Source: Mytilus edulis
Lineage: Eukaryota
Direction of reading: 5' to 3'
NCBI RefSeq assembly: GCF_963676685.1
Contig: NC_092352.1
Location: 24,056,001-24,120,000 of the forward strand
DNA length: 64,000 bases
In this document: positions 18,700-55,712 of the stretch, piece after piece
How the letters are laid out: each line of letters starts with the position of its first letter
Numbering within the stretch: the first letter of the stretch is position 1
Notes under the pieces: generated by a model
What the model saw: only the letters and a program-made list of their open reading frames with translations
Told to the model about the DNA's origin: nothing
The model's database searches: none
Program-made: the position numbers and the translations under genes

Positions 18700-19165
18700 T
18701 GTAACCCATACTTCAGCCAATACTTGCATCTCATATATCCCAGTGAACTTGAAATTAAGGATACTACTGATACTAGAAGGACTGCGTCATACCTTAATCT
18801 TTTCCTCAATATTGACGTAGATGGACGACTTCACACGAAAATCTATGACAAACGGGACGATTTCAACTTCCCAATTATCAATTTCCCATTTCTCAGCAGT
18901 AACATACCATCTGCCCCTTCGTATGGTGTTTACATATCACAATTGATACGTTATTCACGTGCTTACGTTATTCACGTGCTTGTTCACACTATACGGACTT
19001 CATATACAGGAGTGTGCTACTTACGCAGAAACTTCTCCAACAAAGCTATGAGGACAGATTAAAATTGACACTCCGTAAAATTTTATGGACACCATCACGA
19101 ATTGGTGGATCCATACGATGTGTGTTTAACCAAACTAGCTAAGGACATTTTTACCACATGGTAGA
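18700..19165 (+). pseudogene. PLE RT C-terminal fragment
   Basis: IYPSELEIKDTT, KIYDKRDDFNFPIINFPFLSSNIP, YGVYISQLIRY; frameshifted. Confidence 0.85.
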
Positions 19166-21093: not shown

Positions 21094-21499
21094 GTAAGTC
21101 AATGTTCACATCAAACAGTGGTACACCTGTTTTACCTGTTTACACTAATATACGTACGTCATATTGGCAGAAAATACAATATTTATTTGTGCGGCAGCGA
21201 GCTTTAGAAACACAAATATGGAATCGCTTTTTCATGTTTCGTACTTGAGCATTTTCTACATTTACTCTAGTCCGTATGTCAGTTTTTGGTGTTAATGATA
21301 TCGCGTCATATAGACGACGTCATTTTAACAGGTTTTCATACATAGGATAACCGAAGTTTAACGCCGGATAAAGAGTTAGAAGTTTAACGCCGGATAAAGA
21401 GTTGGAAAAGAAAATACCTTTAGAAATAACATTAACAGGCCTATTCTGCATAATTGCAAAAGTTTATGCCATTTTTGCAATACATCCCTGATATAAATT

Positions 21500-22050
21500 C
21501 TATATATAACTTTTGGACTAGTTTAAATCTCGGTCTACTTCTAAAACTTATTCTTACATACTTTTGATTATTTAACCCTGTATGCTAACATTGCCTATGT
21601 AACATTTTTAAATCGTTTGTATGCACATTGAACGACAAATTTATGTGACGTATATAATTTTCTGACGTAAGACACTCAAATCAATGAATGTGTTCGTAGA
21701 TAGTAGATGTTTTTGTGTTCTGTTAAATATTGTTCCTTTTAAAATTGTTATACGATGATGACTGATGTACCCATATGTTGACTATTTTATTAATTGTGTC
21801 TGTTTATTTAACGCATCAATGTAAATATAACGGAATTTGACGAGACTGTCATCAAAGTGAGAGGGTTAGCGCTATATAGAGCCAGGTTTAATCCACCATT
21901 TTCTACATTTGAAAATGCCTGTACCAAGTCAGGAATATGACAATTCTTGTCCATTCGTTTTTGATAGTTTTGTTATTTGAATTGGCCATGTGATTATGGA
22001 CTTTCCGAATTAATTTTCCTCTAAGTTCAGTATTTTTGTAATTTTACTTT
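21500..22050 (+). mobile_element. PLE 3' UTR/pLTR copy containing a twister-like motif (21857-21934)
   Basis: Closely similar to the reverse complement of 3575-4115. Confidence 0.75.
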
Positions 22051-24749: not shown

Positions 24750-25054
24750 TGTTCATTGTTACAATGTATATGTATGTTCAAGAAAGATAAAAGGCCTATT
24801 TTGAAGTGTCTATTCATTGTTACAATGTACATTTATGTTTAAGAAAGGTAAAAGGGCTATTTTGAAGTGTCTATTCATTGTTACAATGTACATTTATGTT
24901 TAAGAAAGGTAAAAGGGCTATTTTGAAGTGTCTATTCATTGTTACAATGTACATTTATGTTTAAGAAAGGTAAAATGGCTATTTTGAAGTGTCTATTCAT
25001 TGTTACAATGTACATTTATGTTTAAGAAAGGTAAAAGGGCTATTTTGAAGTGTC
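24750..25054. repeat. 61-bp minisatellite, 5 copies
   Basis: Unit TATTCATTGTTACAATGTACATTTATGTTTAAGAAAGGTAAAAGGGCTATTTTGAAGTGTC. Confidence 0.95.
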
Positions 25055-25561
25055 TTAAAACAGGTTTTCGGTCATTATGAGCTCTAGTAATATTTGTTAA
25101 AAGTCTATCCGTTTAACAAAGATGTCAGTTTGTATACGTGTTTTATACTTGTTAGCTTGCAGATGTATTATTAACCACACAACACTCTTTTAGAATTTGT
25201 AGAATCATTAATATAATGTTGTTTATATATGCGATGTTAAGCAGCAGTTTATGGACAGTACACGTTCTGTCGTGATATAGTACCGACAACAAGCTATTAC
25301 ATGCCCCGCTGCTAAAGTTGCCGGTTTTTCAAAAAGTGGCTTAATCGTATATCGGAACGGCGCAATAATGCAAACAGATGACATGCAAGATAGTCGAAGA
25401 GATTTACAACAGACATTCGCAGCTGTGTGTCATCATACTGCATTGCCAGTTACAGATGTATATAAGGCCCTGACATTATAAAGTGTAAAACATGCAAACG
25501 ATAAATCTATGGACCTAAACACAAAACACATATATCTTATACATGTAGATTTCTACCTGTA

Positions 25562-26310
25562 AAAAGTAAAATCACAAAAAAACTGAACTTGAGGAAAATC
25601 AATCCATAATCAAATTACAAAACGCATCAAAAACGAATGGACAAGAACTGTCATATTCCCAACTTGGTACAGGCATTTTCAAATGTAGAAAATGGTGGAT
25701 TAAATCTGGTTTTAAAATGCTAACCCTCTCACTTCGATGACAGTCTCGTCAAGTTCCGTTTTATTTACATTGATGCGTTAACTAAACAGACACAATAAAT
25801 AAAATAGTCAAAATATGGGTACATCAGTCATCATCGTATAACAATTTTAAAAGAAACAAATTAACAGAACACAAAAACATCTATCTACAAACACATTCAT
25901 TGATTTGTGTGTCTGACGTCAGAAATTTTATACGTCACATAAATTTGTCGTTCAATGTACATACAAACAATTTTAAAATTTACATAGGCAATGTTAGCAT
26001 ATAGGGTTAAAAAAATCAAAAGTATGTCAGAATAAATTTCAGAAATATACCGAGATTGAAAATAGTCCAAAAGTTATATACAGAATATAAGAATCCACAA
26101 ATAGTTAATTCCACTACGCGATTGAATGATTTTGACGTTTATGGTTCAACGTATTTTGTAATTCACAATAGAAATACATCATATGACATAAAATAGGACA
26201 ATATTATACTGACGGGATCTTTTGAAGTACAGAGTCACGATATAAGAACCAAAGAACTACAAAAGGTCGCATATACAAAACACGCCACCATAAAATGAAA
26301 GACAATACAA
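25562..26310 (-). mobile_element. PLE 3' UTR/pLTR copy containing a degenerate twister-like motif (25657-25732)
   Basis: Same orientation as, and highly similar to, 3575-4350. Confidence 0.75.
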
Positions 26311-26962
26311 TCACATTATGAGCCCTGAAGTTGGGGAATTTCAAATATAAAAACAAGCATGTCTGAGAGTACTGCATGGCAACTATGCAAACACATTGTC
26401 CCGTACGTATACTGGTTAAGAATTCATTGTTCTGAAACAAAATTCTGACTTGCCTATAACTTGTCATGGTGTGAACTATATTTCAAATATAAAGTTAATA
26501 TACTCCTGCATGGCGAAGATAAATGTGGGAAAATAATTATTTAATTTTACAAGTCCAAGGACCATCACTCTGCGCACAATCATCAGACTGGAATATATAT
26601 CAAACTTATTCTGTAACTTGCCATGATTAAATGTGGAAAACTGATTTGCCTGACTGACGGAAGGACAGACAGACAGGCTAAGTGCAAACCTAAGTCCCCT
26701 TCGATTTCCTTGGAAGGGAACTACTTATTCTACTCTATACAGCAACAAACAACTCACTAAGTTCCATGATACTCTTGACTTTGAGGATACACACAGATAA
26801 TAAAGTAGGGTGGTTGATTTGATATGTTGTACTGGCATGTTTTTTGGTCATTTCTGTTACAAATGTATTAAACGTACTCAGCTTAATGTGTTCATCTTAT
26901 AATGTTGATTGCAAGAGTTGCTTGTAATTGACATATTGTCCTTTGTTGTTGGGATGTACCAT

Positions 26963-34606: not shown

Positions 34607-35870
34607 TTATACCCCACGCAACGAAGTTGCGGAGGGTATAGTGTTTTTGACCCGTCCGTCCGTCAGTCCTGTTTCTTGTCATCGCAACTCCTCTCAAACC
34701 ACACAACAGAATTTCACGAAACCTTTTCAGATAATAAGGACATACTATGTAGTTGTGCATATCGACGGGAAATTGCGATTCAATTTTTTTTCTAGGAGTT
34801 ACGCCCCTTTGAACTTATTTACTTTAATGTATTACTGCAACAGTTTGTCATCGCAACTCCTCTCAAACCACACAACAGAATTTCACGAAACCTTTTCAGA
34901 TAATAAGGACATACTATGTAGTTGTGCATATCGACGGGAAATTGCGATTCAATTTTTTTTCTAGGAGTTATGCCCCTTTGAACTTATTTACTTTAATGTA
35001 CTACTGCAACAGTTTGTCATCGCAACTCCTCTCAAACCACACAACAGAATTTCATGAAACTTTGTAGATAATAAGGACATACTATGTAGATGTGCATATC
35101 AACAGGAAATTACGGTTCAATTTTTTTCTAGGAGTTACGCCCCTTTGAACTTATTTACTTTAATGTATTACTGCAACAGTTTGTCATCGCAACTCCTCTC
35201 AAACCACACAACAGAATTTCACGAAACCTTTTCAGATAATAAGGACATACTATGTAGTTGTGCATATCGACGGGAAATTGCGATACAATTTTTTTTCTAG
35301 GAGTTACGCCCCTTTGAACTTATTTACTTTAATGTATTACTGCAACAGTTTGTCATCGCAACTCCTCTCAAACCACACAACAGAATTTCACGAAACCTTT
35401 TCAGATAATAAGGACATACTATGTAGTTGTGCATATCGACGGGAAATTGCGATTCAATTTTTTTTCTAGGAGTTATGCCCCTTTGAACTTATTTACTTTA
35501 ATGTACTACTGCAACAGTTTGTCATCGCAACTCCTCTCAAACCACACAACAGAATTTCATGAAACTTTGTAGATAATAAGGACATACTATGTAGATGTGC
35601 ATATCAACAGGAAATTACGGTTCAATTTTTTTCTAGGAGTTATGCCCCTTTGAACTTATTTGCTTCAATGTACTTCTGCAACAGTTTGTCATCTCAACTC
35701 CTATGAAAACACACAACAGAATTTCATGAAATTTTGTAGATAATAAGGACATACTATGTATATTGACAGGAAATTATTATTCAATATTTTTTCTTATACT
35801 TATTTAATTTCTCCAATGACAATGTGGGGACGTGGGGTATGTGAGCGTGCTCACTAAGGTTCTTTAATTT
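34604..35870 (+). mobile_element. Helentron-associated non-autonomous element (HINE/DINE-like) with internal satellite
   Basis: Subterminal IR ATACCCCACG (34609-18) / CGTGGGGTAT (35831-40), 5' hairpin CGCAACGAAGTTGCG, (GTCC)n tract, 3' hairpin GTGAGCGTGCTCAC, T-rich ends. Confidence 0.75.
34677..35790. repeat. ~168-bp tandem repeat, ~6.6 copies
   Basis: Unit begins TTGTCATCGCAACTCCTCTCAAACCACACAACAGAATTTC. Confidence 0.95.
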
Positions 35871-38859: not shown

Positions 38860-39916
38860 TTCAAAGGTGGTAATTAGTTTCGACAAACCCACATCGTATG
38901 GATCAACCAATTAGTGATGGAGTCCGTAAAATTTACGGAGTGTCATTTTTAATCTGTCCACCTCATAACTTTGTTGGAGCAGTTTGTGCGTTAGGAGCAT
39001 ACTACTGTATATGAAGTCCGCATCGTGTGAACATGCACGAGAATAACGTACCAATTGAGATATGTAAAACACCATACGATGGAACAGAATGTATGTTACT
39101 GCTGAGAAATGGGAAATTGATAATTTGGGAAGTTGAAATCGTCTCGTTTATCATAGATTTTCGTGTAAAGTCGTCCATCTGTGTCAATATTGAGGAAAAG
39201 ATCAAGGTATGAATCAGTCTTTCTACTATCAGTAGTATCCTTAATTTCAAGTTCACTGGGATATATGAGATGCAAGTATTTGCTGAAATATGGGTTATTC
39301 AATGATAGGACATCATCAATGTATTGGAAGATAAAATTAAAGAATTTCGCAAGGTGCTTTTTCTTTATGTCTTTTACATGTTTTAGAAGGTTCTGAATTA
39401 ATTATGACGCCCATCTTTTACTGTAGAAAGAACAGTACTTTAGAAAGATATTTAGTCGAACATTTTGATGATCCAGCTATGTAGCTTTCGTTATATGGAG
39501 TTTTCTGTAGTTTTGGTTTCCAGTATAATGATGGTAAATCCTCTTCGTTTTCTTTTATTGTAAAACCAAAAGAAAGATGAACATATTCGTGATTTTGTAA
39601 AATTTCGTCCTTGGTAAATGATGTTAACCAATATGAAGGATTAGCAGTAGTATATTTATTCCAAGCTCTGTTGTGAAACATTATGAATAATGATTTTTAC
39701 ACATGAAGACAATATTATTGGAGGCTTTATCTGCTGGAACAACGATATATTTGTCAGGCAAATAGGATAAAGCATCCACAACATCCGGATTCTTAAAAGG
39801 GTGAGTAACTATTGTGCTCATAGTACGTCGTAGTTTATGAATGCGCTTCTAAATGCATGATCGAATAACTTTGATCCATTCAGACAAAGTGTCTAGTTCT
39901 TGTTCGTATGGTTCGC
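38860..39916 (-). pseudogene. PLE RT fragment with internal deletion
   Basis: YIVVPADKASNNIVF, LPSLYWKPKLQKTPY, IYPSELEIKDTT, KIYDKRDDF. Confidence 0.85.
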
Positions 39917-42775
39917 ACTTTTTATTGTTAACTGTACAAAACGACGAGTCCTATTTGTTGTAATCCTAGCCAGGTTTCTGATGTCCCGGCTAGCGGGACA
40001 GGAGTATACACAGGATAACGGCGCTCCCGCAAAGAAAGTCTGAGATCCTGCATTTAAAAGTCGCAAGTCGTCCTATCGACGGGTCTAGCGGTCGGTATAA
40101 TCTGTTCAGCTGGTTTGCCTAGGTGTCAAGATCAGTGGATAAATATATGAAATCATCTTCGGCAAATTTGCTTCTTGTATTGTTCTCTGTTTTTGTTACA
40201 TGGCTAGCATAGGAATGGTCTGCTTCAAAAGATGCTCTATGTGTTGTTTCTTTTTTGTTTCAATTGAACTCTATCTTGAATAAATTTGGATATTTTTTTA
40301 ACATAGTTTGATGGAGAGAATCGCCCATTGTGATTTCTAATGGATGGCATAATTTTTTTATAGAAGACGTTTGGGTTTTGCTCGTTGTTGAAGGCCGTAC
40401 GGTGACCTATAGTTGTTAATTTCTGTGTCATGTTGGTCTCATTGGCAATCATACCACATCTCCTTTTTATTAATGACCTCAATTCTAATTAATATATTGT
40501 CTTGTATGTGATATAATTTTAGTTCATTTATAGGTTTTTGATTGTGACGTCCATTTTCTCTGAATTAGAACACAAATTTTAATTAGGGCCTATGTTGTGT
40601 CTTCTTGCTGTGCTGAAGACCTATCGGTGGCCTTCAGCTGTGTTCTGCTCTTTTATCAGGTTGTTGTCTCTTTGACATATTCCCCATTTCCATTCTCTAT
40701 TTTATTGCATACTAATTTTTTTAACTATTGATGTTAAAATTAGAAGATAAACCAATCATATTTTAAAGAAAAATCACAAAGAAGCACAATTAAAAGTAGA
40801 TGATAATTGACTGTATTGTGAAACTATAATAATATAATTACCATATGCCTTGGTGTGCAATTCAATTATTTGATCCTCATAATCACTCAATATATTCAGA
40901 CAATCCTCATTTTTTATTCATCTTTGAGCATAATTTTTAATGTGAACCTGTTGTTTCTTTGACATACTGTCATTGTAACGTAAATAAAGAAAACATATAA
41001 GCCTTATATTCAGAGTAGGAATAAAGGATTAAATGAGTGAAGGAGAAGGCATTGTTTCTAATACATTTCATTTGTAATGAGATTGATGATTTATCCTATG
41101 AAAGTAAATGAGCCAGAGATTCAGTTATTATTATTATATTCAAGTTATCTGATATTTGCTCTGGATTTTTTGCAAAATCTGCGTACACAAATTAAAACAG
41201 ACAATATGTCTAGTTTTTTTAATATTATTTGTAGTGTAAATATTGACATCTATTTGTTTTAGGTAAACTATCAAATGTAAAGCATTATTTAAGCAAAATG
41301 TGTAACAAAATTATGAAACTTTTTTCCAAAGTTCAGAGTTAATACTGGTACCGATGTGCTATGTGTTGTGGTAAAAAAAATTCAGCCAATTAAATTCATC
41401 AGTCACAAAGAAGACGACCCAATAGCACTTTCTTTACGTCATTCATGTTAACTGTTTCACTGTCATTCAAAACAAACATGTCTATGTCTTCTAGTCTTAC
41501 ATTTTCACAGTCTTGCAATACAGATGAAAGAACCCATTTTTCTTCGTTTAATGCACATTTGATATAATGTTTAATGCATCTCGGGTAAGTAAAGCGTCAT
41601 TCTCTTGAAATTCCCACTTGTTCAGTCTTCTTTTTTTCAGTTTTATTATTTCTTCCTCTAGTATGAATTTTTCTTTCTGTACAGTCAACACGTCATACTG
41701 CTTCCGTGATGGCATTTCTTGAAGTCCTCAATGGTTTCTTCTCGGGTTAAGGAGTACTAGTAAATATTGGCAAATAAATTACAGTTGCGGTTAAACATGT
41801 ATCAGAAATTGCAATGGCGGCAGTACATGTATCGGCATGGTGCTTTCAAACTCTGCATCATATAGCGTATATCTTCCACATTTCTTACGACTGGGATAAA
41901 AAAAAAATCTACATTTTGTCGACATTTATATTATATATCTGAATAGACATTGAGAGCATATATATATATTGTGACAAGTAACCCCCAGGGCATATATTTT
42001 TTTATTTTTATATTATGCTGTAAATATGTTATTTCCTTGTTATAGATAAGATATATGTTTTGAATTGTTAAGAATGTTATTTATTCTATATGAGTCCTAA
42101 GTTCCTATGATAATAGAACTAAAATATTTGTTTATTGTTCATTGAAGAGATATTTTCATAAAATAATCCAAGTCAGAATTGTTTTCATTTTTGCATAAAT
42201 TGTAAACATCAAGATTTTTGTTAAAATGACTTTCCATATATTTTTATGTTTACCTAGTCTTGGTAAATGCTTTAATAATTGTGTTGTGTATTGACTTGTA
42301 TCAACAAATGGATAGAACATGAGAAATATTGTGATATTTAGATTTTTGAGACTTGTTGTTATTTTGAGAAAGTTCCCGTACTTTTTCATCTGTAACTTTT
42401 TCGGGATCGACCCCACTTTAGACATACTTTCTGTCAATTTTGGACAATGACAGCCAAACTTACTTATATACACTCTTTTCGAAAGTCGAATTGAGTTTGA
42501 GAATTTACTTTTCCCCACTGAAGGTTATGCATTTTGCTTAAACTTGTCGATCTTCGTTTCTGTTACAGACAGCATGTATCGCTATCCGCCATTACTTCAG
42601 ATGAACGGCTAGCGATTTCATAGGTTGATTAAAAGAATAAAGTATTTTACCTTAATTTTTGTAGAAATTGTTATAGAAATGTTTTATTTTACGATTAATG
42701 TTAGAAAATGTAAAAGTTTATATTTTAATAACTTTGTATTCTTTGTCGATTCAACTTGTTAAAGAATGGAGCTTT

Positions 42776-42930
42776 TTGATTGGCTATTGGTTACTGTGCA
42801 CTGTGCAAGATGGGGCACTTAAGGGTATCGTGCATGCCCCTGTGCGGTACATTTGCACTGTCGTGCAGTGGCGGGTATTATATAACCTTTCGAAAACGCT
42901 GCACTGACGTCACTTTCACGCCATTTTATT
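42776..42930 (+). promoter_or_regulatory. putative LTR core promoter
   Basis: Two ATTGG (CCAAT) boxes ~42779-42790, TATATAA 42879-85, CRE TGACGTCA 42905-12 overlapping Inr-like TCACTTT (A at 42912), YY1-like CGCCATTTT 42919-27; same in the 3' LTR. Confidence 0.55.
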
Positions 42931-43303
42931 AGGGATTGAACCGCTGCCAAAATTTTATTAGAAAGTAAGGCCAATTTTTACGTTTAGAAACTTATTTATT
43001 TAACTAAATTTTCTTATTGGAAAAACGTAATTTTACAGAGATTTTAATGATAATTTCTAGAAGTTTATTTTCATTTCAAAAGTAACTTTTAAAGGCTGTT
43101 TTACGAATTTATGGTTCAAAATTTCATTGTTTTGGAATTGTAAAGTTTTGTTTAAGTACATTTTACCGGAAAGTTAGATTTTTCTATTTAAGAGTCCAAA
43201 GCCAATCAAACTATTTTTGCGTTTAAATTATAGACTGTGTTATAGGATTTTAAAGGTATATCTGAGAGTTCTTTGCTACACTTTTATTGTCCTCTATTTT
43301 ACA

Positions 43304-44342
43304 AGACATACGCTACTAGTAAAGTCTCTAGTACACTTGTCTACATTTACGCAAATTAAATATATTAGATAAGGTAATAGGGACACAAAACATACGCTAC
43401 TAGTAAAGTCTCTAGTACACTTGTTTTGTTTAAATAACTATAAATAGGGAGATTAGTTAAAAGACATACTCTACTAGTAAAGTCTCTAGTATTTTGTCGT
43501 GATTAAAATAATTGGAATAAGGATAAAGGGCTTACGCTACTAGTAAAGTTTCTAGTACATTTGTCCTGTTTAAATAACAGTTACTGTATAAATAGGGAGA
43601 TTAGTCAAAAGACATACACTACTAGTAAAGACTCTAGTATATTTGTCCTGTTAAAGTAATTAAGATAAGGATAAGGGTCTCAGGACTACACTGCTAGTAA
43701 AGTCTCTAGCAATTGTCTTGAAGTAAATAAGAAAACCAAGTTACAGATAAACACTATTTTGAGTAAACTTTGAGATAAATTAGATGGCATATGCTGCTAG
43801 TAAAGTCTCTAGCACAATTGTCATAATAGCTTAAATTTGTATAAACTGAGATTAATTGATTTTCTCTTCATAAATCTATTTGTACATTCATTTACAAGTA
43901 AATACTAAAACACCTTTAGATCTAAGGCATACGCTCTAGCACAGGGTCAGCTAGCACACTTGCCTCTAAATTTTGTACACCTGATAACGCTCTAGCACAG
44001 GGTCAGCTAGCACACTTTCTTGTGTACTAAAGTTATAACGTTTATAATAAAGAATTTAATACATTAAAAACCTTTTAGAACTTAGGCATACGCTCTAGCA
44101 CAGGGTCAGCTAGCACACTTGCCTCTAAATTTTGTACACTTGATAACGCTCTAGCACAGGGTCAGCTAGCACACTTTCTTGTGTATTAAACTGTTGAATA
44201 TTCTTATTGTCTATGTAACGTTACCAATTTAAACTTAGAAGTTAGGTACTCAGTTAAACCTTTAAGTGATATATATATACCTCAGATATACCTTGTTAAT
44301 ATTAGACATACGCTACTAGTAAAGTCTCTAGTACACTTGTCT
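43304..44342 (+). repeat. array of 12 conserved stem-loops in the 5' LTR
   Basis: Eight copies of type TACGCTACTAGTAAAGTCTCTAGTACACT and four of type ACGCTCTAGCACAGGGTCAGCTAGCACACT, each closed by its own complementary outer stem. Confidence 0.9.
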
Positions 44343-44742
44343 CTTTGTTATATGTAATATTTGCTACTGGTCTCATTGTTATATACCAGTGTCAGTGTAT
44401 CTGAAGAAAACCCTAGTCAAATAATAAACACACTATTGTTATTCATATTTTTATTGGTTAACGGTAGTCCTTTAATAGTCCATTATATATATTGAAAGTG
44501 ACCATAACATCAGGCCAATAATAAAGTATTGAACTTCAAAACGTATTTCCCTTTACTTTAGATTTTAACAAATCTAGCGAGACATAGAGTTTGCTTTTCC
44601 AGTTATTATATCTGGTTTATTGTGTCACCTCAGTTGGTTCTGATTTTGAGATTTAGTCTTGGGTCAAGGTCTTGTGTACGTTCATTGTTTGGGAGTTTGC
44701 TGACAACCTTATTTGCCATATAGCTCTTGCGCGCTACATTTT

Positions 44743-44760
44743 TGGCATCCTCGGTGGGAT
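44743..44760 (+). promoter_or_regulatory. primer binding site
   Basis: TGGCATCCTCGGTGGGAT, 4 nt after the LTR; complement of a tRNA 3' end with discriminator G; isoacceptor not identified (Arg or Asn possible). Confidence 0.85.
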
Positions 44761-44804
44761 CTGCTTGTCATTTGCGGATCCAGTGATACGAATATCTTTT
44801 AATT

Positions 44805-46487
44805 ATGGTAAAAAGGAAGAATCCAGCACTACCCAGACCAGGTGAAAGGAGCGAAATAGACACAGAGACGGATGCCATCGAGACTGACACAGATTGTAAT
44901 ATGTACACAGACTTTTCAGAGCCAGAAACTGACGACAGAGATGTTACAGTAATACCAAAAGTAAGCGTGATAAACTTGCCCAGCACTAGCTCTATACCAA
45001 TTAGTTCAGATATCAGACCAAGAAGAAGTTTGAGACTGTCCAGGAAGAGAGAAGTCCACACAGAGAGTGAGAGAGAAGAACCTGAAATGCAAAGTCATGG
45101 TGACACAGCTGGTGTTTATGGTATAATTAAAGGGGCATTTCAAGAAATGACCGGTCAATTGGTGACAGCAATCCAATCAGCATTCAAGGGTTTCCACAGT
45201 GATACCAAGTTAACTGAAAAGGGGGAGACTAGAAAAGCAAAGAAAAGACCAACAAAGTCCAAAAGTGACCCAGGCAGATTACATCCTGTGATGTCCAACT
45301 TTGCCATCCAGTCAGACAGTGATGATAGTTCAGATGAAAGCAGCTATGAAGATTCTATAGAAGGCAGTATAGATACATGTTACATAACAGAACCCAAAAG
45401 AAAACCTGCTATGTCTAGTAATGTTAAATTACCTGCTTATATAGGCAAAGAAAAATGGGAGGTGTACTACAATAGATTTGAAGCTGTTTCTAAACTGAGT
45501 CATTGGGACGACAACACCAAATTAGCAGAGCTACTTCCTCGTCTACAAGGAGAAGCAGGTGACTTTGCCTTTGATCAACTTGCCCAAAGAACATTATCAA
45601 GCTATACTAGATTAACCAAAGAGATACACAACAGATTTGGAACTTTCGAGACCAAGAAAAACTACAAAACATTGTTTAATAGACGAAACCAGAAATCTGA
45701 CGAGAAACCAGAGGCTTATGCAGCAGAGCTGAAACGGATTTATGACAAAGCTTACAAAAACAGAGATATGAAAATTAGGCAAGAGGACCTGTTACAAAGA
45801 TTTCTGATGGGACTTTCTGACCATGACAGTAGGGTCCATGTGGAGCTATGTAAAGAACCAAACACCATTGAAGAAGCAGTGCAAGAAGTTATCACTTTTA
45901 CTGAAGCTATAAGTCCACAAGAAGACCATACAGTAAGCAAATTTAAGAAGCAAGTTAGGCAGGTTAAGGGAAAACAGAAAACTTACAGTAAAAAGGGCAA
46001 AGACAAAGGAAAGAAACAAGATGACCAATCACTTAGTGAAGACAGTGACCAACCTAACCCTCCTAAACCAGGATTCACCACTGTAGATATTGAACAAATT
46101 AAAGATATAATAAAGCGAGTAAACCAGGAGCAAAGGAGAGATGAAAACATACAGAAACCAAATGGGTACCAGGGGAACTCCCATTTTAGCTCTTCACCAA
46201 ATTATGTACCAGATTCTAACAGTTACAATAGAAGAGAAAACATAAATACTGCAAATCCACCAAGTCAACAGGGGTATGGTAGTCAAGATACAAAGACAAA
46301 TTTTGCTTGTTATTATTGTGGCCAGCCAGGAAATTTTGCCAGGAACTGCTTTAGTAACCCAAAAAGACAACCCGACTTTAAAAGAAGCCAACCATGGAAT
46401 GAAGGAAGAACAAGGGAGGTTACTCCACCAACTCTAGATTTTAGGTCAGGGAAAACTGAGTCTTTCCCTGAAATAGCTTTAAACTAG
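44805..46487 (+). CDS. gag: Gag (560 aa)
   Basis: KLPAYIG..WEVYYNRFE, LQGEA, RNQKSDEKPEAYAAEL capsid-like region; zinc knuckle CYYCGQPGNFARNC (His replaced by Asn). Confidence 0.9.
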   Translation: MVKRKNPALPRPGERSEIDTETDAIETDTDCNMYTDFSEPETDDRDVTVIPKVSVINLPSTSSIPISSDIRPRRSLRLSRKREVHTESEREEPEMQSHGDTAGVYGIIKGAFQEMTGQLVTAIQSAFKGFHSDTKLTEKGETRKAKKRPTKSKSDPGRLHPVMSNFAIQSDSDDSSDESSYEDSIEGSIDTCYITEPKRKPAMSSNVKLPAYIGKEKWEVYYNRFEAVSKLSHWDDNTKLAELLPRLQGEAGDFAFDQLAQRTLSSYTRLTKEIHNRFGTFETKKNYKTLFNRRNQKSDEKPEAYAAELKRIYDKAYKNRDMKIRQEDLLQRFLMGLSDHDSRVHVELCKEPNTIEEAVQEVITFTEAISPQEDHTVSKFKKQVRQVKGKQKTYSKKGKDKGKKQDDQSLSEDSDQPNPPKPGFTTVDIEQIKDIIKRVNQEQRRDENIQKPNGYQGNSHFSSSPNYVPDSNSYNRRENINTANPPSQQGYGSQDTKTNFACYYCGQPGNFARNCFSNPKRQPDFKRSQPWNEGRTREVTPPTLDFRSGKTESFPEIALN

Positions 46488-46542
46488 AGAGGGTCAACTC
46501 CAATGACCAGGAGCTGACCCAGGGTTTTCAGGAGAAAGGTCA
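46478..46542 (+). promoter_or_regulatory. -1 programmed ribosomal frameshift signal
   Basis: T TTA AAC slippery heptamer directly before the gag stop, 6-nt spacer, stem GGGTCA-A-CTCC / GGAG-C-TGACCC; loop TGACC complementary to GGTCA at 46538-42; -1 frame is open into pol. Confidence 0.85.
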
Positions 46543-49500
46543 AATTTTGAGAGAGGAGAATAAAGAAGTGTTACTTAGCAGCAGTAGTTCAGTAGAGGTT
46601 TTTAGTAGAAATAAAAGTAGTTTTAATGAGGTTATTGATTTCTCACAGGGTGAGAATGAAAATTTATGTTCAAGCTGTGACGACAGCAGTGAACAAAACT
46701 TGATTAGTCCACAATTTATTGGACGTCAAGTACTCCGCAGCGAAGGAGTTTATATTGAGGGTCATGTGCAAGGCACTGAAGTGAATTTTACAGTTGATAC
46801 AGGGGCCTCTCGAACAGTGTTATCGAGAAGGGCTTTTCAACAAATACCATTTGCTAAAAGACCCCTCTTAAAGAAGTCAAATATGCTGGCTAGTGCCGAT
46901 GGCAAACCACTACATGAGTTAGGGAAAGCCATTTTTGACATCAAATTAGGAGATTTACCTTTTGAGATTGAAGTTGTAGTTGCAGAGATTGAGGACGAAG
47001 CCTTGTTGGGTCTTGATGTACTTATGAAGGCAGATTGTGGACCAGCTAATTTAAGATTAAGCGACGGGATTATGCTGCTAGGTGATACTTCCATTCCCTG
47101 TCAACAAATTGGCTTACCTGAAAGAGTAAGAAAAATTAGAGTAGCTGATAATTTTTCTATACCGCCCAGAAGTGAAATGCTTATAGATGTTTTTATAGAT
47201 AGATATGAAGATGACCAAATTTTAGGATCCTTTGATTTTGTTTTAGACCCCACTGAAGATATATTACAGAGATACCCCGTTGTTATGGCCCCTACTATAG
47301 TTAACATTGAAAAAGATGTAACCAGTTTAGTTAGAATATTAAAACCTTTTGATACAGAGTTTACTTTATATCAAGATACAGTTATTGGAGAAGCTGAAAG
47401 CTTGATAAAGGAACCAGAAATTTTAGTTTCATGCGAAGATAAAGCTGAAGTCAGTAATTTTTCAGTAGTTAGACGTATTAAATTAGGTGACCATAAACCA
47501 GTTCAGTGGGAAACCAACACGGGAATTATTAGGAACATTTCAAAGAAAGGGACTGCAGATGGTGGGAAAAGTGGTATTGTTCCTGATCACTTACAGGATT
47601 TATTTTTAGAATCTACTAAAGAACGTTCAGCAGAAGAATGTGATATTATTTGTAATTTATTAAATAAATTTTCAAATGCTTTTTCTAAAAATGACATGGA
47701 CCTTGGTTTAACTAATTTAACAGAACACTGTATAGAGACAGGGGATGCCAGACCAGTGAAGCAGCCACCATGAAGAGTACCTGTGGCCTATGCTAATGAG
47801 GAAAAGAAGTTGGTAGACCAGATGTTACAACAAGGGATTATCCAGAAATCGCACAGTCCATGGGCATCTCCACTGGTTTTGGTTGTGAAGAAGTCTGGTA
47901 AGCTGAGACCATGCTGCGATTTTCGCAGGCTAAACAAGCTAAGTCGGCTCGATAGTTATCCTATTCCACGCATACAGGACTGCCTGGATACTTTGAGTGG
48001 TTCTACCATTTTCAGTACTTTTGATTTGATCAGTGGTTTCAATCAAATCCCTGTAAAGAAAGAAGACATCCCTAAGACTTCATTCGTGACTAAGTATGGT
48101 CTATTTGAATACAAAACTCTCCCTTTTGGTCTTTGTAATGGGCCGTCCACCTGTCAAAGACTAATGGAATTAGTTTTAAACGGTTTACAGTGGCAAACTT
48201 GCCTAATTTACCTGGACGACATTATAGTCTTCTCCCCTAGTTTTGACCAGCATATTGAAAGACTAGAAGAGGTGCTCCTTAGAATTTTGGAGGCAGGGTT
48301 AAAGCTGAAACCAGAAAAATGCACTATGTTAAAGTCAGAAGTTGCATTTCTTGGTCATGTTGTATAATGGAAAAGGGGTTCAATTAAATCCAGATAACAT
48401 TGCCAAAATTTTAGCTTGGTCAGTGCCAACAAATGTAACTGAAGTCCGTCAATTAGTTGGGATGGGTAGCTATTATCGTCGTTTTATTAAAGATTTTTCT
48501 TCTCTTGTGAAGCCTCTAACAGAGCTCACTAAGAAGTCAAATGCATTTATCTGGTCGAATGAGTGCCAAAAATCTTTTGAACAACTTAAAGAAGTATTTA
48601 TGAGTCCAGAAATAATGGGATATCCTTTAGACAAGGGAGATTTTATATTAGATACGGATGCAAGTGATTTTGCCATTGGAGCAGTTTTGAGCCAAATTCA
48701 AGATGGAAGACCCAGAGTGATCGCTTATGGCAGTCGTACCTTAAATAAAGCTGAGTGCAATTATTGCGTGTCAGGACTGACCACCAGGCCTTGATATGGT
48801 TATTTAGCCTTAAAGAGCCTAAGGGCAGGATTGCCCGGTGGATTGAAATACTATCCGCTTTTGATTTTACTGTAGAATATAGACCAGGCCCCAAACATGG
48901 AAATGCAGATGCTATGTCACGATGCATAAACCCCCGTGAGTGTGATTGTCCCCAAACAGACCATATGGAATATTTGAAATGTGGTCCTTGTGCGAAATGC
49001 ACAAGAAGAGCTCGTGACATGGTGACTTCCATGATTTCCCCCCCCCCCCCTTTTATAGAAGAAAAGAAAGTTTTTAAAAGTCTTAATGTAGTAAAGACAA
49101 GGAAACAGACAGAGGAAGCTAATACTTGGACCATTTGGAAAACAGGACATACTATACCAGAGCTAAAGAAATTACAAGAGGAAGATGAAGCCATTGGCCA
49201 TATTTTTAAATGGAAAACAGATGGGAAGAGACCGCCATGGAGAGATGTGGAAAGTTTGAGTCCAGCTACCCGACATTATTGGCACCTTTGGGAATCCTTA
49301 TTTTTTAAAGAGAATTTACTCTTTAAAGAATTCTCTAAGCGAGATGAAACTGCTGACCAAATACAGTTTTTAACCCCACAGAAATTGAAACCTGAAATTT
49401 TAGCTCAAATGCATAATTCCATTACATCTGGGCATTTGGGAAGGAAAAAGACAAAGGCAAAGCTTTCCCAGAGATTTTATTGGTATGAGATGAGAGAGGA

Positions 49501-50494
49501 CATCACCATATGGTTAGCAAAGTGTGATATTTGCCAGGCAAATAAATCTCCAGTAAAAGGATACAGGGCCCCTTTAGGAAGTATGCCTACTGGTGGACCA
49601 TGGGATAGATTGGCTACTGATATTTTAGGCCCTCTTCCTGTCACACCAAGACATAATAAATATGTTTTAACGGTAACAGACCATTTTACAAAGTGGGTCG
49701 AGGTTTTTCCTGTACAGGACTCCACTGCTGTTACCTGTGCTTACTTGATTTTAAATGATGTTATATGTCGTTATGGTTGTCCACTTGCCTTACACTCTGA
49801 TCAAGGTCGCAACTATGAAAGTGATATTTTTCAAGAGCTGTGTTCTATGTTAGACATTAGAAAAACAAGAACCAGTGTAAGAAATCCAAAGGGTAATGGT
49901 CAAACATAGCGATTTAATCGTAGTTTACTGTCTATGATTAAATCTTATTTACAAGGTGAACAGACAGACTGGGATTTAAATCTTGGTTGTCTTGCAGGTG
50001 CTTACCGGTCTACTCCGAATGCATCTACAAGTCTTACTCCTAACTTGTTGATGTTAGGAAGGGAAATCAGGTTTCCAGTTGAGGTGATACAAGCAAAAGT
50101 TTCGGTTCAAGGTGAAGTCCAAGTAAATCCAGGCGATTTTGTCTGTGAATTAAGAGAGAGGTTGCAAAAGGCTCATAGTGTTGCCAGAAAACATTTATCA
50201 GCAAATGCTAAAAGGCGTAAAGATTACTATGACCAGAAAGTAAACTTTGTCATTTATAATATTTTTGATAAGGTTTGGTACTTAAACAAGACAAGGAAGG
50301 AAGGCATAAGTCCAAAACTTCAACCCTTATACTTGGGACCTTGCCTTATTACCAAAAAGTTGAATGAAATTAATTTTGAAATACAACTAGATGCTAAGGG
50401 AACCAGAAAGGTTATTAATCATAACAAGTTGAAACCTTACATTGGTGAAAACATACCCAAGTGGATGAAAATAGTTGAAAAACAAATTTCTTAA
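46478..50494 (+). pseudogene. pol: Pol (PR-RT-RNase H-IN), disrupted
   Basis: VDTGAS, YLDD, LDTDAS, HHCC, DILGP/SDQG; TGA at 47771-73, frameshift ~48362, deletion plus frameshift in RNase H ~48770, TAG at 49907-09 replacing the integrase catalytic Glu. Confidence 0.95.
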
Positions 50495-50883
50495 CTGTTG
50501 TTAATGGCCGGTTAAACTCCATTATCCTTTGTCTGTACTATACTTGAGTGATGAACTGAAAATTTAAAAATAAATTTTTGTAAATATCAGTAGAGATATC
50601 AAATATGAATTCATTATTTTTATGAATTCTTCCAAAGAAATCTAACTTGACAAGTTAGGGATCAAATTTATATTTTGCTTACCAATATGAAAATTGTTAA
50701 GTATTTAATTTTATTTTAAATAATATAAACTTGGTGTATGAAATTTTTATATACCGTTTAATAAGTATGTAATTATCTCCCCTGTATAAAGCTAAAATAA
50801 ACTTCAGATACACTGCCAGGTTATTTCTGGGACCAGACCTATTAAACTGGACAAGAGTTTTAAAGGTCCTATACTCTTTTTAG

Positions 50884-52140
50884 ATGAGTTTCCAGTATGA
50901 TGCCGCCAAGGCCAAGAGAAGGGCAACCATCTGTCTTCTCTGTACTGATTCTCCTGCTTATATGGGCCAGAAGCATAGAGTTGTAACACACATTTTGGTG
51001 AACCATGTGTCAGTTTCGAGAACACATTACTTCTGCACACTTTGCCAGTTTAGATGCACCAACATGGATACTCTGAAACAGCATGTGAACTTTCATAGGC
51101 CTCATCAGACATTGAAGGATAGCTTTTCAGCCTTGCCAGACAAGGACTACTTTCTTATCTCAGATTCACCTTACTTCCCGCAGGCAGGAAGAGATTTTAA
51201 ACTGTTGCCTAGGCAGAGACCCGGTTTGGGCACTACAATAGACCCAGTAGAATTGAGTTCAGGAAGCAGTACTGGTGGAGTATCGCCTCCCACTGTACCA
51301 ACATGTGTGATACCAGAACGACCAGTAGGAAGGGCCACTGTTTACATACCATCTTTTATGCCACCACCAGAACCAGTCCAGTTTGTAAATTACACTTCTC
51401 CATCTGATATTTCCTCATCTCTACCTCCACCTCCTTTCGACTTCAACCCAGGACACTGGTCATCACCCTCCATCCAAGCTTCACCACCCTTGCCAACAGA
51501 AACCAACATTGTTCAGGAAATAATACAGGAGAACCAGGCTGCCCTTGGGATGGACCTCCAGTACACAAACACCATAGATTTTTTTGATTTACCAGAATCG
51601 CCATTGGTATCCACACCAGAACTGGCCTCTCCAGTGAGGAACATCATTATGAGAGACAGAGAAATAGGGGAAGAGGAAAATTTGTTGCCCCAGCTGTTAG
51701 GTGATAGCAACCCACCTGTATCACCCTCAACAAACCATCCAGCCACGGAATGGAATGGTGTTCCTCTTAGTCAAGGTCCAGAACTTCATTCATCCTCATC
51801 CTCCTCTTCATCTTCATCATCATCTTCATCTGATTGCTCTGCTCTGGGAGAGGTGAAACAGTCAATATCCACTTTACTAGAGAACACTGCGGCAGAGCAT
51901 TCAAAGACCAGAGAAAGTATTGGCCAGTTGGGCACGGTTATTGAAAGTCTGGTGTCGCAGGTACAGGGTTTGAGATCAGTGGTAAGGGAGCAAGGGGATG
52001 AAATCAGGAGATTAAAGAACGATCGACCGAACACAACTACCATCGTAAACAGATCCAGAATTCAGCAAAGGCGCCGGACGCCGACACCCAGCAGACAGAG
52101 ATTTGGCCATCCACTTCCACCTGCAAAAAGAAGAAGATAA
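50884..52140 (+). CDS. ORF3: double C2H2 zinc-finger protein with Pro/Ser-rich region, coiled coil and basic/NLS tail (418 aa)
   Basis: CLLC-x15-H-x4-H and CTLC-x12-H-x3-H; heptad-like IGQLGTVIESLVSQVQGLRSVVREQGDEIRRL; RRRTPTPSRQR and PPAKRRR; no signal peptide or TM segment seen. Confidence 0.85.
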   Translation: MSFQYDAAKAKRRATICLLCTDSPAYMGQKHRVVTHILVNHVSVSRTHYFCTLCQFRCTNMDTLKQHVNFHRPHQTLKDSFSALPDKDYFLISDSPYFPQAGRDFKLLPRQRPGLGTTIDPVELSSGSSTGGVSPPTVPTCVIPERPVGRATVYIPSFMPPPEPVQFVNYTSPSDISSSLPPPPFDFNPGHWSSPSIQASPPLPTETNIVQEIIQENQAALGMDLQYTNTIDFFDLPESPLVSTPELASPVRNIIMRDREIGEEENLLPQLLGDSNPPVSPSTNHPATEWNGVPLSQGPELHSSSSSSSSSSSSSSDCSALGEVKQSISTLLENTAAEHSKTRESIGQLGTVIESLVSQVQGLRSVVREQGDEIRRLKNDRPNTTTIVNRSRIQQRRRTPTPSRQRFGHPLPPAKRRR

Positions 52141-52925
52141 ACTTGTTATATTTAGGGTATTATAAATTTTAGGTAAATATTTAGGGTAAAATGGTAGAAA
52201 ATCATGAAATCAATTTGAAATTATGTAAGGGAGAGTAAATTAAAAACATTTTTAAATGTTATCCAGCTAAATAATGGTTTTATTCAAGAGATTTTATAAG
52301 TATTGAAAAATTTTCAGAAATCAAGTTTATAATTGTTTAATTCAAATTGTTACACTTTTAAAAATAAAACATACCTTTCTGTTCAATCATTTTCTTTTAA
52401 ATTCATTAGATCAATAGCATTTCCTGTCATACTGAAAAATATAATTTTAGATTTAGCTATGTGTTACTTATAGCATGGTAAAGGGTCGATCATTTATTGT
52501 TGTGTATTTTAAACTGTATGTATTAAAGTAAAGTAATATGATATAGTTAATATTGTATTGGATAATGGTTGTGGATGTACCTAGTTAAATGGTGATACAT
52601 TATTAGAAAAGAAATTTTAGAAATTATTTTTACTGTTAAATTACTATAGTAAAGTAAAGAAATTATTACTTAACTCATGAGTTTCTTAAAGATACGTACC
52701 TTCACTTTGGAAAACGTCTCTGCTTTAATTTATTTATGACTAAACACTAGTCATAATTTGTTGAAGAAATATTTTGGTGACAATAAATATAAATTTTTGA
52801 TATTTACAAGATAAATATTTGGATGTAATAAATTTTGAAAAATGTGGAAAGCTTTTCAAAGGTGACACGATACAGGGAGAAGATGTTTTCTAGTCCGTCC
52901 AATTTGTGGGGACACAAATTTTAAC

Positions 52926-52937
52926 AGGGGGGTAAAA
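52926..52937 (+). promoter_or_regulatory. polypurine tract
   Basis: AGGGGGGTAAAA abutting the 3' LTR; preceded by hairpin AATTTGTG-GGGA-CACAAATT (52901-20). Confidence 0.8.
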
Positions 52938-55712
52938 TGTGACAAGTAACCCCCAGGGCATATATTTTTTTATTTTTATATTATGCTGTAAATATGTTAT
53001 TTCCTTGTTATAGATAAGATATATGTTTTGAATTGTTAATAATGTTATTTATTCTATATGAGTGCCAAGTTTCTATGATAATAGAACTAAAATATTTGTT
53101 TATTGTTCATTGAAGAGATATTTTCATAAAATAATCCAAGTCAGGAATGTTTTCATTTTTGCATAAATTGTAAACATCAAGATTTTTGTTAAAATGACTT
53201 TCCATATATTTTTATGTTTACCTAGTCATGGTAAATGCTTTAATAATTGTGTTGTGTATTGACTTGTATCAACAAATGGATAGAACATGAGAAATATTGT
53301 GATATTTAGATTTTTGAGACTTGTTGTTATTTTGAGAAAGTTCCCGTACTTTTTCATCTGTAACTTTTTCGGGACCGACCCCACTTTAGACATACTTTCT
53401 GTCAATTTTGGACAATGACAGCCAAACTTACTTATATACACTCTTTTCTAAAGTCGAATTGAATTTGAGAATTTACTTTTCCCCACTGAAGGTTATGCAT
53501 TTTGCTTAAACTTGTCGATCTTCGTTTCTGTTACAGACAGCATGTATCGCTATCCGCCATTACTTCAGATGAACGGCTAGCGATTTCATTGGTTGATTAA
53601 AAGAATAAAGTATTTTACCTTAATTTTTGTAGAAATTGTTATAGAAATGTTTTATTTTACGATTAATGTTAGAAAATGTAAAAGTTTATATTTTAATAAC
53701 TTTGTATTCTTTGTCGATTCAACTTGTTAAAGAATGGAGCTTTTTGATTGGCTATTGGTTACTGTGCACTGTGCAAGATGGGGCACTTAAGGGTATCGTG
53801 CATGCCCCTGTGCGGTACATTTGCACTGTCGTGCAGTGGCGGGTATTATATAACCTTTAGAAAACGCTGCACTGACGTCACTTTCACGCCATTTTATTAG
53901 GGATTGAACCGCTGCCAAAATTTTATTAGAAACTAAGGCCACTTTTTACGTTTAGAAACTTATTTATTTAACTAAATTTTCTTATTGGAAAAACGTAATT
54001 TTACAGAGATTTTAATGATAATTTCTAGAAGTTTATTTTCATTTCAAAAGTAACTTTTAAAGGCTGTTTTACGAATTTATGGTTCAAAATTTCATTGTTT
54101 TGGAATTGTAAAGTTTTGTTTAAGTACATTTTACCGGAAAGTTAGATTTTTCTATTTAAGAGTCCAAAGCCAATCAAACTATTTTTGCGTTTAAATTATA
54201 GACTGTGTTATAGGATTTTAAAGGTATATCTGAGAGTTCTTTGTTACACTTTTATTGTCCTCTATTTTACAAGACATACGCTACTAGTAAAGTCTCTAGT
54301 ACACTTGTCTACATTTACGCAAATTAAATATATTAGATAAGGTAATAGGGACACAAAACATACGCTACTAGTAAAGTCTCTAGTACACTTGTTTTGTTTA
54401 AATAACTATAAATAGGGAGATTAGTTAAAAGACATACTCTACTAGTAAAGTCTCTAGTATTTTGTCGTGATTAAAATAATTGGAATAAGGATAAAGGGCT
54501 TACGCTACTAGTAAAGTTTCTAGTACATTTGTCCTGTTTAAATAACAGTTACTGTATAAATAGGGAGATTAGTCAAAAGACATACACTACTAGTAAAGTC
54601 TCTAGTATATTTGTCCTGTTAAAGTAATTAAGATAAGGATAAGGGTCTCAGGACTACACTGCTAGTAAAGTCTCTAGCAATTGTCTTGAAGTAAATAAGA
54701 AAACCAAGTAACAGATAAACACTATTTTGAGTAAACTTTCAGATAAATTAGATGGCATATGCTGCTAGTAAAGTCTCTAGCACAATTGTCATAATAGCTT
54801 AAATTTGTATAAACTGAGATTAATTGATTTTCTCTTCATAAATCTATTTGTACATTCATTTACAAGTAAATACTAAAAAAAACCTTTAGATCTAAGGCAT
54901 ACGCTCTAGCACAGGGTCAGCTAGCACACTTGCCTCTAAATTTTGTACACCTGATAACGCTCTAGCACAGGGTCAGCTAGCACACTTTCTTGTGTACTAA
55001 AGTTATAACGTTTATAATAAAGAATTTAATACATTAAAAACCTTTTAGAACTTAGGCATACGCTCTAGCACAGGGTCAGCTAGCACACTTGCCTCTAAAT
55101 TTTGTACACTTGATAACGCTCTAGCACAGGGTCAGCTAGCACACTTTCTTGTGTATTAAACTGTTGAATATTCTTATTGTCTATGTAACGTTACCAATTT
55201 AAACTCAGAAGTTAGGTACTCAGTTAAACCTTTAAGTGATATATATATATATACCTCAGATATACCTTGTTAATATTAGACATACGCTACTAGTAAAGTC
55301 TCTAGTACACTTGTCTCTTTGTTATATGTAATATTTGCTACTGGTCTCATTGTTATATACCAGTGTCAGTGTATCTGAAGAAAACCCTAGTCAAATAATA
55401 AACACACTATTGTTATTCATATTTTTATTGGTTAACTGTAGTCCTTTAATAGTCCATTATATATATTGAAAGTGACCATAACATCAGGCCAATAATAAAG
55501 TATTGAACTTGAAAACGTATTTCCCTTTACTTTAGATTTTAACAAATCTAGCGAGACATAGAGTTTGCTTTTCCAGTCATTATATCTGGTTTATTGTGTC
55601 ACCTCAGTTGGTTCTGATTTTGAGATTTAGTCTTGGGTCAAGGTCTTGTGTACGTTCATTGTTTGGGAGTTTGCTGACAACCTTATTTGCCATATAGCTC
55701 TTGCGCGCTACA
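52938..55712 (+). repeat. 3' LTR (2775 bp)
   Basis: Direct repeat of 41970-44738. Confidence 0.97.
54272..55316 (+). repeat. array of 12 conserved stem-loops in the 3' LTR
   Basis: Copy of 43304-44342. Confidence 0.9.

Follow-up and report, generated by a model that had tools for sequence, protein, structure and literature searches.

A conserved zinc-finger third gene in the env position of a mussel Ty3/gypsy lineage, with a possible role in the fate of unspliced element RNA

The window, i.e. the whole stretch of 64,000 nucleotides of Mytilus edulis DNA that was analysed, contains a Ty3/gypsy LTR retrotransposon at positions 41970–55712, of which the open reading frame under study, ORF3, is the third gene (Table 1). 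The assignment to Ty3/gypsy is based on paired LTRs with TG...CA ends, a target-site duplication, a primer-binding site and a polypurine tract, and on gag being followed by protease, RT, RNase H and integrase in this order. The two LTRs are 98.96% identical, indicating a young copy, although two in-frame stop codons and two shifts of frame interrupt its pol gene. The slippery heptamer at the gag end suggests programmed frameshifting, by which a –1 shift would lead from gag into pol, and polyadenylation at the predicted signal would give rise to an R region of about 1.6 kb. Outside the element, the window holds tandem arrays of ~169 bp units (34676–35763) and ~61 bp units (24691–25117), as well as two sets of dispersed repeats (3572–4357, 21492–22056 and 25605–26317; 18702–19137 and 38875–39297) that occur in both orientations, are 84–97% alike and are likely non-autonomous transposons.

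Table 1. Features of the retrotransposon and of ORF3, in window coordinates
Feature	Position	Strand	Remarks
5' LTR	41970..44738	+	TGT...ACA ends, 2769 bp
Target-site duplication			ATAT flanking the element at both sides; seen in the sequence
TGCA[C/G] cluster, five words	42796..42868	+	directly 5' of the TATA box; candidate DNA sites
Predicted core promoter	42879..42916	+	TATATAA 42879–42885, initiator-like TCACTTT 42910–42916; order and spacing common to F2/F3 LTRs
Predicted splice donor GAAA/GTAAGG, cut after GAAA	42960..42970	+	exon end 42964, ~55 nt, without ATG
Hairpin array, 12 copies	43298..44348	+	8 type A and 4 type B; again in 3' LTR
Predicted polyadenylation signal AATAAA	44520..44525	+	AATAAAGTATT context common to F1–F3, near LTR end
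Primer-binding site	44743..44760	+	starts TGG; common to F2 and F3
gag	44805..46487	+	open; weak PNMA-like and CCHC matches
Slippery heptamer TTTAAAC	46478..46484	+	gag end
pol	46472..50494	+	protease, RT, RNase H and integrase matches
Predicted splice acceptor	50868..50883	+	pyrimidine tract and TAG abutting the ORF3 ATG
ORF3	50884..52140	+	418 aa; 390 nt 3' of integrase tail, 797 nt 5' of 3' LTR
Finger 1	50932..51006	+	C-x2-C-x15-H-x4-H
Finger 2	51034..51213	+	C-x2-C-x12-H-x6-H, second helix, conserved extension to ~residue 110
Acidic Pro/Ser-rich middle	51214..51831	+	SPVR (aa 249), EENLLPQLL (aa 264–272), 14-Ser run
Predicted coiled coil	51844..52023	+	heptad segment ~aa 321–380; LRSVV motif at aa 363
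Arg-rich tail and predicted NLS PPAKRRR	52051..52137	+	residues 381–418 29% Arg
Polypurine tract	52926..52932	+	seen in the sequence
3' LTR	52938..55712	+	second hairpin-array copy; donor GT lost here

A preliminary description of ORF3 had noted an uninterrupted frame in AT-rich surroundings, encoding two C2H2 fingers. Indeed, 418 open codons are expected by chance with a probability of only ~1e-14 at the window's composition, the GC content is 0.46 in 51001–52000 compared to 0.33 and 0.28 in the flanking bins, and the fingers are present as C17-C20-H36-H41 and C51-C54-H67-H74. The eight zinc ligands are kept in 96–99 rows of a 99-sequence alignment. As H74 is near-invariant (97 of 99 rows) while position 71 is mostly aromatic (Tyr 62, Phe 27, His 10), finger 2 is of the H-x6-H type, a reading that had been offered as an alternative and that turns out to be the right one. 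The linker between the fingers comprises nine residues in 90 of the 91 rows matching the two-finger pattern and is not TGEKP-like; on account of this linker and of the H-x6-H spacing in finger 2, we rejected a classical Krüppel-type C2H2 array. In the same alignment, basic residues are conserved at positions 11, 13, 30, 32, 39 and 57 and the domain reaches to about residue 110, while the recognition-helix positions of finger 2 vary freely.

In a structure model (pLDDT 77), finger 2 has helices at residues 61–70 and 72–80. Foldseek searches of the PDB and BFVD with the finger domain returned nothing at E 0.001, the weak rows including the two-finger DNA binders HIM-8 and ZIM (E >1), and VIA-align gave a best Z of 5.1 and, for finger 2, of 3.5, all below the tool's trust level. 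The top structural row for finger 2, itself weak, was the DNA binder Kaiso (Z 3.5, rmsd 4.9, 51 aligned), while 11 of 30 rows, likewise weak, stem from RNA-protein complexes (spliceosome, pre-60S, TUT1, TUT4, JAZ; TUT1 with Z 2.8, rmsd 3.4 and 40 aligned, JAZ with Z 2.1). The matching chains in these complexes are probably matrin-type fingers. Matrin/JAZ-type structural matches stayed at Z ≤3.9 and the window protein scored 18.4 bits with zf-met, below the cut-off of 21.2. By sequence, the finger domain matches DNA-binding C2H2 proteins in the PDB, among them CTCF and Ikaros, and the ESM Atlas placed unnamed clusters on top (0.95–0.96), followed by generic C2H2 families. The structure searches thus establish neither a novel fold nor a known one.

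Downstream of the fingers, composition and heptad scoring agree with the order that had been described, i.e. a Pro/Ser/acidic region, poly-Ser, a (predicted) coiled coil, an Arg-rich segment and PPAKRRR. Residues 111–300 are 17% Pro and 12% Ser with a net charge of –16. Among 54 long family members, 33 pass the heptad score (~1 expected from shuffles), and several short motifs recur, including an acidic LLxQLL-type motif (14 vs 0.1 expected) and an [LIV][KR]S-VV-type motif that lies close to the C-terminus and often follows KEN (13 vs 0.15 expected). KEN is found in 14 of the 54 tails (1.6 expected) and R-x-PY in 11 (2.3 expected), the tails being 14% Arg; S/T-P-x-K/R occurs in 27 long members (17 expected). 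LLxQLL resembles coactivator-binding motifs, which lends some support to the earlier reading of the acidic region as a possible activation domain, and KEN and R-x-PY may represent an APC/C degron and a transportin signal, respectively. The [LIV][KR]S-VV-type motif lies at aa 363 of ORF3 and in the tails of P0026, P0063, P0075, P0087, P0095 and P0123. A reading of the tail as an RS domain was rejected, as RS dipeptides occur in 8 of 54 members compared to 6.6 expected, as were Pfam coiled-coil matches (fibrinogen, NET2A), which fell below the cut-off. ORF3 contains no hydrophobic segment (maximum 19-residue hydropathy 0.95) and no furin site (R-x-K/R-R), and the 54 long relatives likewise lack any hydrophobic 19-mer above 1.6, bearing out the earlier statement that the product is not an envelope. 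That it is a nuclear zinc-finger protein holds for the zinc fingers, while basic motifs at the C-terminus are what predicts the nuclear location. For a canonical leucine-rich export signal, ORF3 yields a single weak match at aa 115–124 and nothing else.

The finger domain gave 59 matches among 88 candidates in the M. edulis genome. Nine families of elements in this genome carry ORF3 after integrase, namely F1, to which the window element belongs, F2–F8, whose RTs are 52–80% identical to that of the window element, and O2. With the window's integrase as the only query and 1.5 kb scanned, a same-strand integrase was detected upstream in 39 of 53 de-duplicated own-genome loci. It was likewise found in 17 of 21 metagenome loci; of the other four, three offer less than 640 nt of upstream sequence and the fourth contains part of gag. 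A place after integrase, part of what the preliminary description had proposed to check, is thus common to most of these loci. Two F3 copies of ORF3 (L015 and L016, at G000:C12:1104733 and 1115544) are identical and lie 10.8 kb apart, apparently in a tandem element sharing an LTR.

RT and finger-domain identities are correlated across ten elements (Spearman 0.52, Mantel p 0.004), and FastTree trees of RT and finger domain have the groups F1+F2, F3+F4, F6+F7+F8 and L124+L134 in common; F3+F4 was left open in an IQ-TREE RT tree made of elements collected in this analysis only. A profile search yielded 390 proteins at E 1e-10. The strict two-finger pattern fits 91 of the best 150 matches, many of the others being host multi-finger proteins. 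Pfam zf-met and zf-C2H2_jaz were each hit by only 8 of 99 members at E 0.01. Among 30 proteins looked up, those with a named source come from Mytilus, from Potamilus (a freshwater mussel), from Gigantopelta (a snail) and from bacterial bins. P0052, P0072 and P0154 are annotated in such bins (Ca. Thiodiazotropha, Sedimenticola), probably as animal DNA that was binned there. In viral contigs, 108 matches to the pattern were seen, none of which was confirmed. A snail protein combining the finger domain with a BTB/BACK-like part (P0047) looks like a gene-model fusion and was not counted as evidence.

Compared to five diverged F1 copies, ORF3 shows dN/dS values of 0.06–0.09 overall, 0.04–0.15 per protein third and 0.08–0.15 in the acidic middle, and 0.11 compared to one closer copy. 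The values of 0.58 and 1.13 for the two closest copies, which are based on 14 and 9 changes, are expected because of decay after insertion. Changes common to at least two copies comprise 143 synonymous and 26 non-synonymous ones, and finger domains of the other families gave 0.02–0.22, except for two close pairs (0.62 and 0.76). Neither a dN/dS of about 1 across the family nor a host gene captured in this copy alone, the two outcomes that the preliminary description had set against its own reading, was thus encountered: ORF3 is under purifying selection and its homologues are element-borne. We conclude that a Ty3/gypsy lineage has long carried ORF3 as a conserved gene of its own, which was not captured from the host and does not evolve neutrally.

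Zinc fingers at this position extend beyond the window's finger type. Eleven further elements were picked among the 150 integrase-tail matches listed, spread over identity and with long open frames favoured, and ten of them have a sense ORF after integrase with N-terminal C2H2 fingers; in O1, no finger ORF was found after integrase. While O2 carries the same finger domain as the window and O3 and O11 another finger pair, O4 and O6 bear a finger pair fused to TatD (E 1e-39 and 1e-41), in O5 and O7 the fingers are joined by a BTB domain of KCTD type (E 2e-16 and 3e-14), and O8–O10 have a finger pair, with an acidic tail in the two that were read further. In the gypsy third ORFs at L159:7046-8560 and L163:7183-8610, both on the minus strand, a finger pair is followed by a helical region and then by a complete TatD DNase domain. 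Those at L161:883-2082 and L165:1147-2217, both on the plus strand, start with fingers, continue with poly-Ser and KSV-type motifs and end in a BTB domain of KCTD type. Two other finger-pair types occupy the same position in L157:1630-3360 (+), L171:8499-9137 (+), L167, L168 and L170; in L157 and L171 the first finger has a wide His spacing and an acceptor precedes the ATG. The window's finger type lies on both sides of the best-supported split in the RT tree, so that its bearers are not shown to be one clade.

The same copies revealed an uneven divergence at silent sites. Between the window subfamily and older F1 copies, fourfold sites differ by 0.37–0.49 in ORF3 compared to 0.06–0.21 in gag/pol, and total divergence rises sharply at the ORF3 ATG and falls at its stop. 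Silent divergence in ORF3 amounts to 3–5 times that in gag/pol in the same copy pairs (window vs L005–L010; L051–L055; L112/L114/L093). F5 agrees (0.20–0.51 vs 0.07–0.10), as do two of three F7 pairs (0.17–0.23 vs 0/97 and 0/151); the excess is absent in F3, F4 and F6. Fourfold GC is higher in ORF3 than in pol in 12 of 15 elements. The changes are mostly transversions, which argues against editing. Recombinational exchange of an ORF3 cassette would explain the excess most simply, but it might also reflect constraint on gag-pol RNA, with which the fourfold GC values would agree, or escape from small RNAs.

In 19 of 21 families, the ORF3 ATG is preceded at 0–9 nt by a pyrimidine tract and YAG, compared to 4.9% of other ATGs, the acceptor rule and the ATGs having been chosen after the sequences were seen. 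In the LTRs of F1–F3, the same order is found of TATA, initiator-like motif, GTAAG donor ~55 nt further on and a AATAAAGTATT signal near the end. Of 20 F1 LTR copies examined, 15 have the initiator-like motif, and 13 of these a GT[A/G]AG donor. With this arrangement, R is predicted to be long, and the first exon to be short, non-coding and joined to position 50884. Among the runs listed as containing the stretch, none is recorded as RNA. The spliced joint (42964 to 50884) was found in none of eight runs, six of which, available as contigs, are only guessed to be RNA; contigs from three runs, which may be DNA, cross the acceptor unspliced. Two raw RNA runs, sampled at about 6 and 18 in 100, contain hardly any element reads, nearly all of them on the poly-Ser repeat and from unrelated transcripts. 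A processed copy (exon 1 plus ORF3) was not detected among the 15 LTR loci with the initiator-like motif. Apparent joints or loose ends near 50770, 51949, 52023 and 52118 were rejected, as they are not GT-AG and the one near 50770 matches genomic variants.

Between donor and polyadenylation signal, the LTR carries an array of hairpin units, each built of an outer stem, an internal loop, an inner stem and a loop of 8–9 nt. An exact 22-mer from the array occurs 32 times in the genome, never more than about 3.3 kb from an F1 LTR promoter match (reversed control 0). In an automatic alignment of the 12 copies, some of them out of register, 83% of cells pair; its covariation score was reached by 8 of 500 shuffles and its count of doubly changed pairs by 120 of 500. 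Stems registered by hand for 23 copies from six families contain, on the plus strand, 193 Watson-Crick, 16 G-U, 3 A-C and 15 other pairs, counts that come from fitted patterns and related copies. Pairing in the stems is kept through double changes, and distinct pair types within F1 alone include three G-U vs one A-C. Folding of the minus strand is nearly as good (mean z –2.0 vs –1.6). Arrays were seen in six of eight families with the window's finger type and in one of five elements with other types (O4); none was found in F5 or O2, both of which have the window's finger type. By eye, two and three copies of a related hairpin motif were found in F2 and F3, respectively, while F6, F7 and F8 have different motifs of similar shape just 3' of the primer site and before gag. 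As these latter arrays lie between primer site and gag, they would be carried by unspliced RNA only. The F6 leader in L105 (reverse strand) has eight hairpins, and a duplicated block of LTR end and array brings these to 16. The region 3' of the primer site is the usual place of packaging signals, so that Gag may be a partner of these hairpins.

An element with strong splice signals flanking gag-pol needs a means of keeping and exporting unspliced RNA. With a confidence somewhat short of even, we suggest that ORF3 encodes a Rev/Rex/CERV-like protein, produced from spliced RNA, that binds the hairpins and promotes unspliced RNA. Such a switch would fit because the predicted protein has a finger of putative RNA-binding type, a segment that may multimerise and a tail rich in Arg, and lies next to repeated structured RNA in the intron leader; the conserved acceptor, the LTR donor with its hairpin array and the breadth of the family slightly favour a role at the RNA level over one at the DNA level. 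Against it count the lack of a spliced joint in the eight runs and of a canonical export signal, the weakness of all structural matches with Kaiso on top for finger 2, the DNA-binding C2H2 proteins among the PDB sequence matches, the distribution of arrays (none seen in F5 and O2, one in O4), their nearly equal folding on the minus strand and the possibility that Gag is their partner. The route would run as follows, all of its steps being inferred and none observed. The LTR promoter would fire near 42910, and default splicing would link the non-coding exon of ~55 nt ending at 42964 to 50884 and take out gag-pol together with the primer site, so that ORF3 mRNA is made first. The basic tail would take the protein into the nucleus, where the finger pair would bind internal-loop hairpins just 3' of the donor and the coiled coil (BTB in relatives) would multimerise on the array. 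Conserved short motifs would then recruit host RNA-processing or export factors, such that full-length RNA escapes splicing or retention and Gag and Pol are made.

Several other functions have to be weighed against this reading. ORF3 could be a transcriptional activator akin to Tas or Tax, whose finger pair, dimerised by the coiled coil, would recognise U3 DNA close to the TATA box or else the hairpin sequences as DNA palindromes, and whose acidic middle would recruit coactivators in a positive LTR feedback, leaving the hairpins as Gag packaging signals or host-factor sites. We regard this as the main rival, less probable than the Rev/Rex/CERV-like reading but close behind it. The architecture, in which fingers, an acidic Pro/Ser stretch, a coiled coil and a basic tail come together, the excess of LLxQLL-type motifs, the Kaiso row for finger 2, the weak HIM-8 and ZIM rows, and the lack of a clear export signal all point that way. 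In addition, TGCA[C/G] words cluster 5' of the TATA box in F1–F3, with 5, 3 and 4 matches within 150 nt compared to 1, 4 and 4 across the other 1.9–2.6 kb. However, the nine-residue non-TGEKP linker, the H-x6-H spacing and a finger-2 recognition helix that varies while basic residues elsewhere are kept are not what a DNA reader would lead one to expect, a pair of distinct stems in which double changes and G-U pairs occur suits RNA better than a DNA site, and export of unspliced RNA despite strong splice signals is left unaccounted for.

A part in counter-defence, in which the fingers would target element chromatin, element RNA or a host silencing protein and an exchangeable C-terminal module would neutralise silencing, appears improbable. 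It draws on the TatD nuclease and KCTD-type BTB fusions of other finger pairs, on nucleases carried by bdelloid ORF3s, as described in the available part of PMC5408684, and on the silent-site excess, which could mark a conflict with small RNAs; yet the window's family has neither an enzyme nor a ligase-adaptor domain, and selection on ORF3 is strongly purifying rather than diversifying. Still more doubtful is a cofactor of the particle or of integration, choosing RNA for packaging or, at a limited stage of the cell cycle, bringing the pre-integration complex into the nucleus. The F6–F8 arrays do lie where packaging signals usually do, and KEN and S/T-P-x-K/R motifs hint at cell-cycle control, but ORF3 has no membrane or capsid-like feature, and a separate spliced gene with nuclear signals would be unusual for such a role. 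Finally, an envelope remnant, a host gene captured in the window copy or a chance open frame has next to no probability: the env position and the annotation of pieces as host C2H2 genes in databases might suggest one of these, but hydropathy, position, co-descent and dN/dS rule them out.

Beyond the Rev/Rex/CERV-like reading of ORF3 itself, a more general and still more speculative scenario, to which we would give about one chance in four, is that an env-less invertebrate Ty3/gypsy lineage, broad and old, is in effect "complex". It would encode spliced finger regulators that read the element's own hairpin arrays, independently of retroviruses and CERV, with swapped effector modules (coiled coil, BTB, TatD nuclease) and silent-site renewal of one gene in response to small-RNA silencing. 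Self-encoded regulators and nuclear exit of intron-containing RNA are known for very few env-less LTR elements, CERV being a clear case, and natural pairs of finger and hairpin variants exist across the families, with the candidate RNA target beside the gene. The findings also bear on annotation: position is no ground for naming an ORF env, and many mollusc "C2H2 domain" genes in databases are transposon genes.

Finger 2 resembles the matrin/U1C/JAZ fingers (zf-met PF12874, zf-C2H2_jaz PF12171) in its C-x2-C-x12-H core, wide His spacing and second helix, the latter two being hallmarks of matrin/JAZ-type RNA-binding fingers. Families of this type have five residues between the histidines; finger 2 of ORF3 has six, and it packs together with finger 1 and the extension. 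We found no account of the ORF3 family in the literature, although supplements or Repbase may annotate such ORFs. The main texts of mollusc and polychaete LTR surveys contain "ORF" and "zinc" 0 times (PMC6238403, PMC8556966), and the accessible parts of PMC13524379 and PMC8220671 hold no description of it. ORF3 thus represents a real, old and undescribed accessory gene family, a large one whose named hosts include bivalves and one gastropod.

Third ORFs of bdelloid LTR retrotransposons likewise follow pol; they are typically expressed from spliced messages, as is predicted for ORF3, and carry exchangeable cargo including nucleases. As presented in the main text, in which "zinc" appears 0 times, they are of env-like, GDSL, DEDDy and coiled-coil or membrane types and are family-specific, whereas the mussel finger domain spans RT identities of 41–80% (PMC5408684, in part). 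With foamy virus Tas and HTLV-1 Tax, as portrayed in the available portions of PMC7828637 and PMC3185809, ORF3 shares origin from the 3' region, the predicted traits of a nuclear regulator, an acidic activation-like region and possible LTR feedback; no internal promoter was found in the mussel element, and the likeness is one of architecture. In HTLV-1 Rex/RXRE and HIV-1 Rev/RRE, described in the same partial source (PMC3185809), a regulatory gene in the 3' part of the genome is expressed by splicing, as predicted for ORF3, and an Arg-rich segment goes with a structured RNA element. The RXRE is located at the 3' end of all HTLV-1 transcripts, and the F1–F3 array, lying in R, would be on all transcripts as well. 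CRM1 is the route of Rev and Rex, in contrast to ORF3, which lacks a clear leucine-rich export signal, has zinc fingers and belongs to an element without env. The closest known case is CERV of the C. elegans element Cer1, a spliced nuclear protein encoded in the env position and needed for export of genomic RNA, which works by the logic proposed for ORF3 (PMC10309623, in part). According to that source, CERV has exons common to gag, H, M and G domains and a C4 loop, and no homologues beyond nematodes, whereas ORF3 has one predicted coding exon and two C2H2 fingers; the two are likened by logic, not by sequence.
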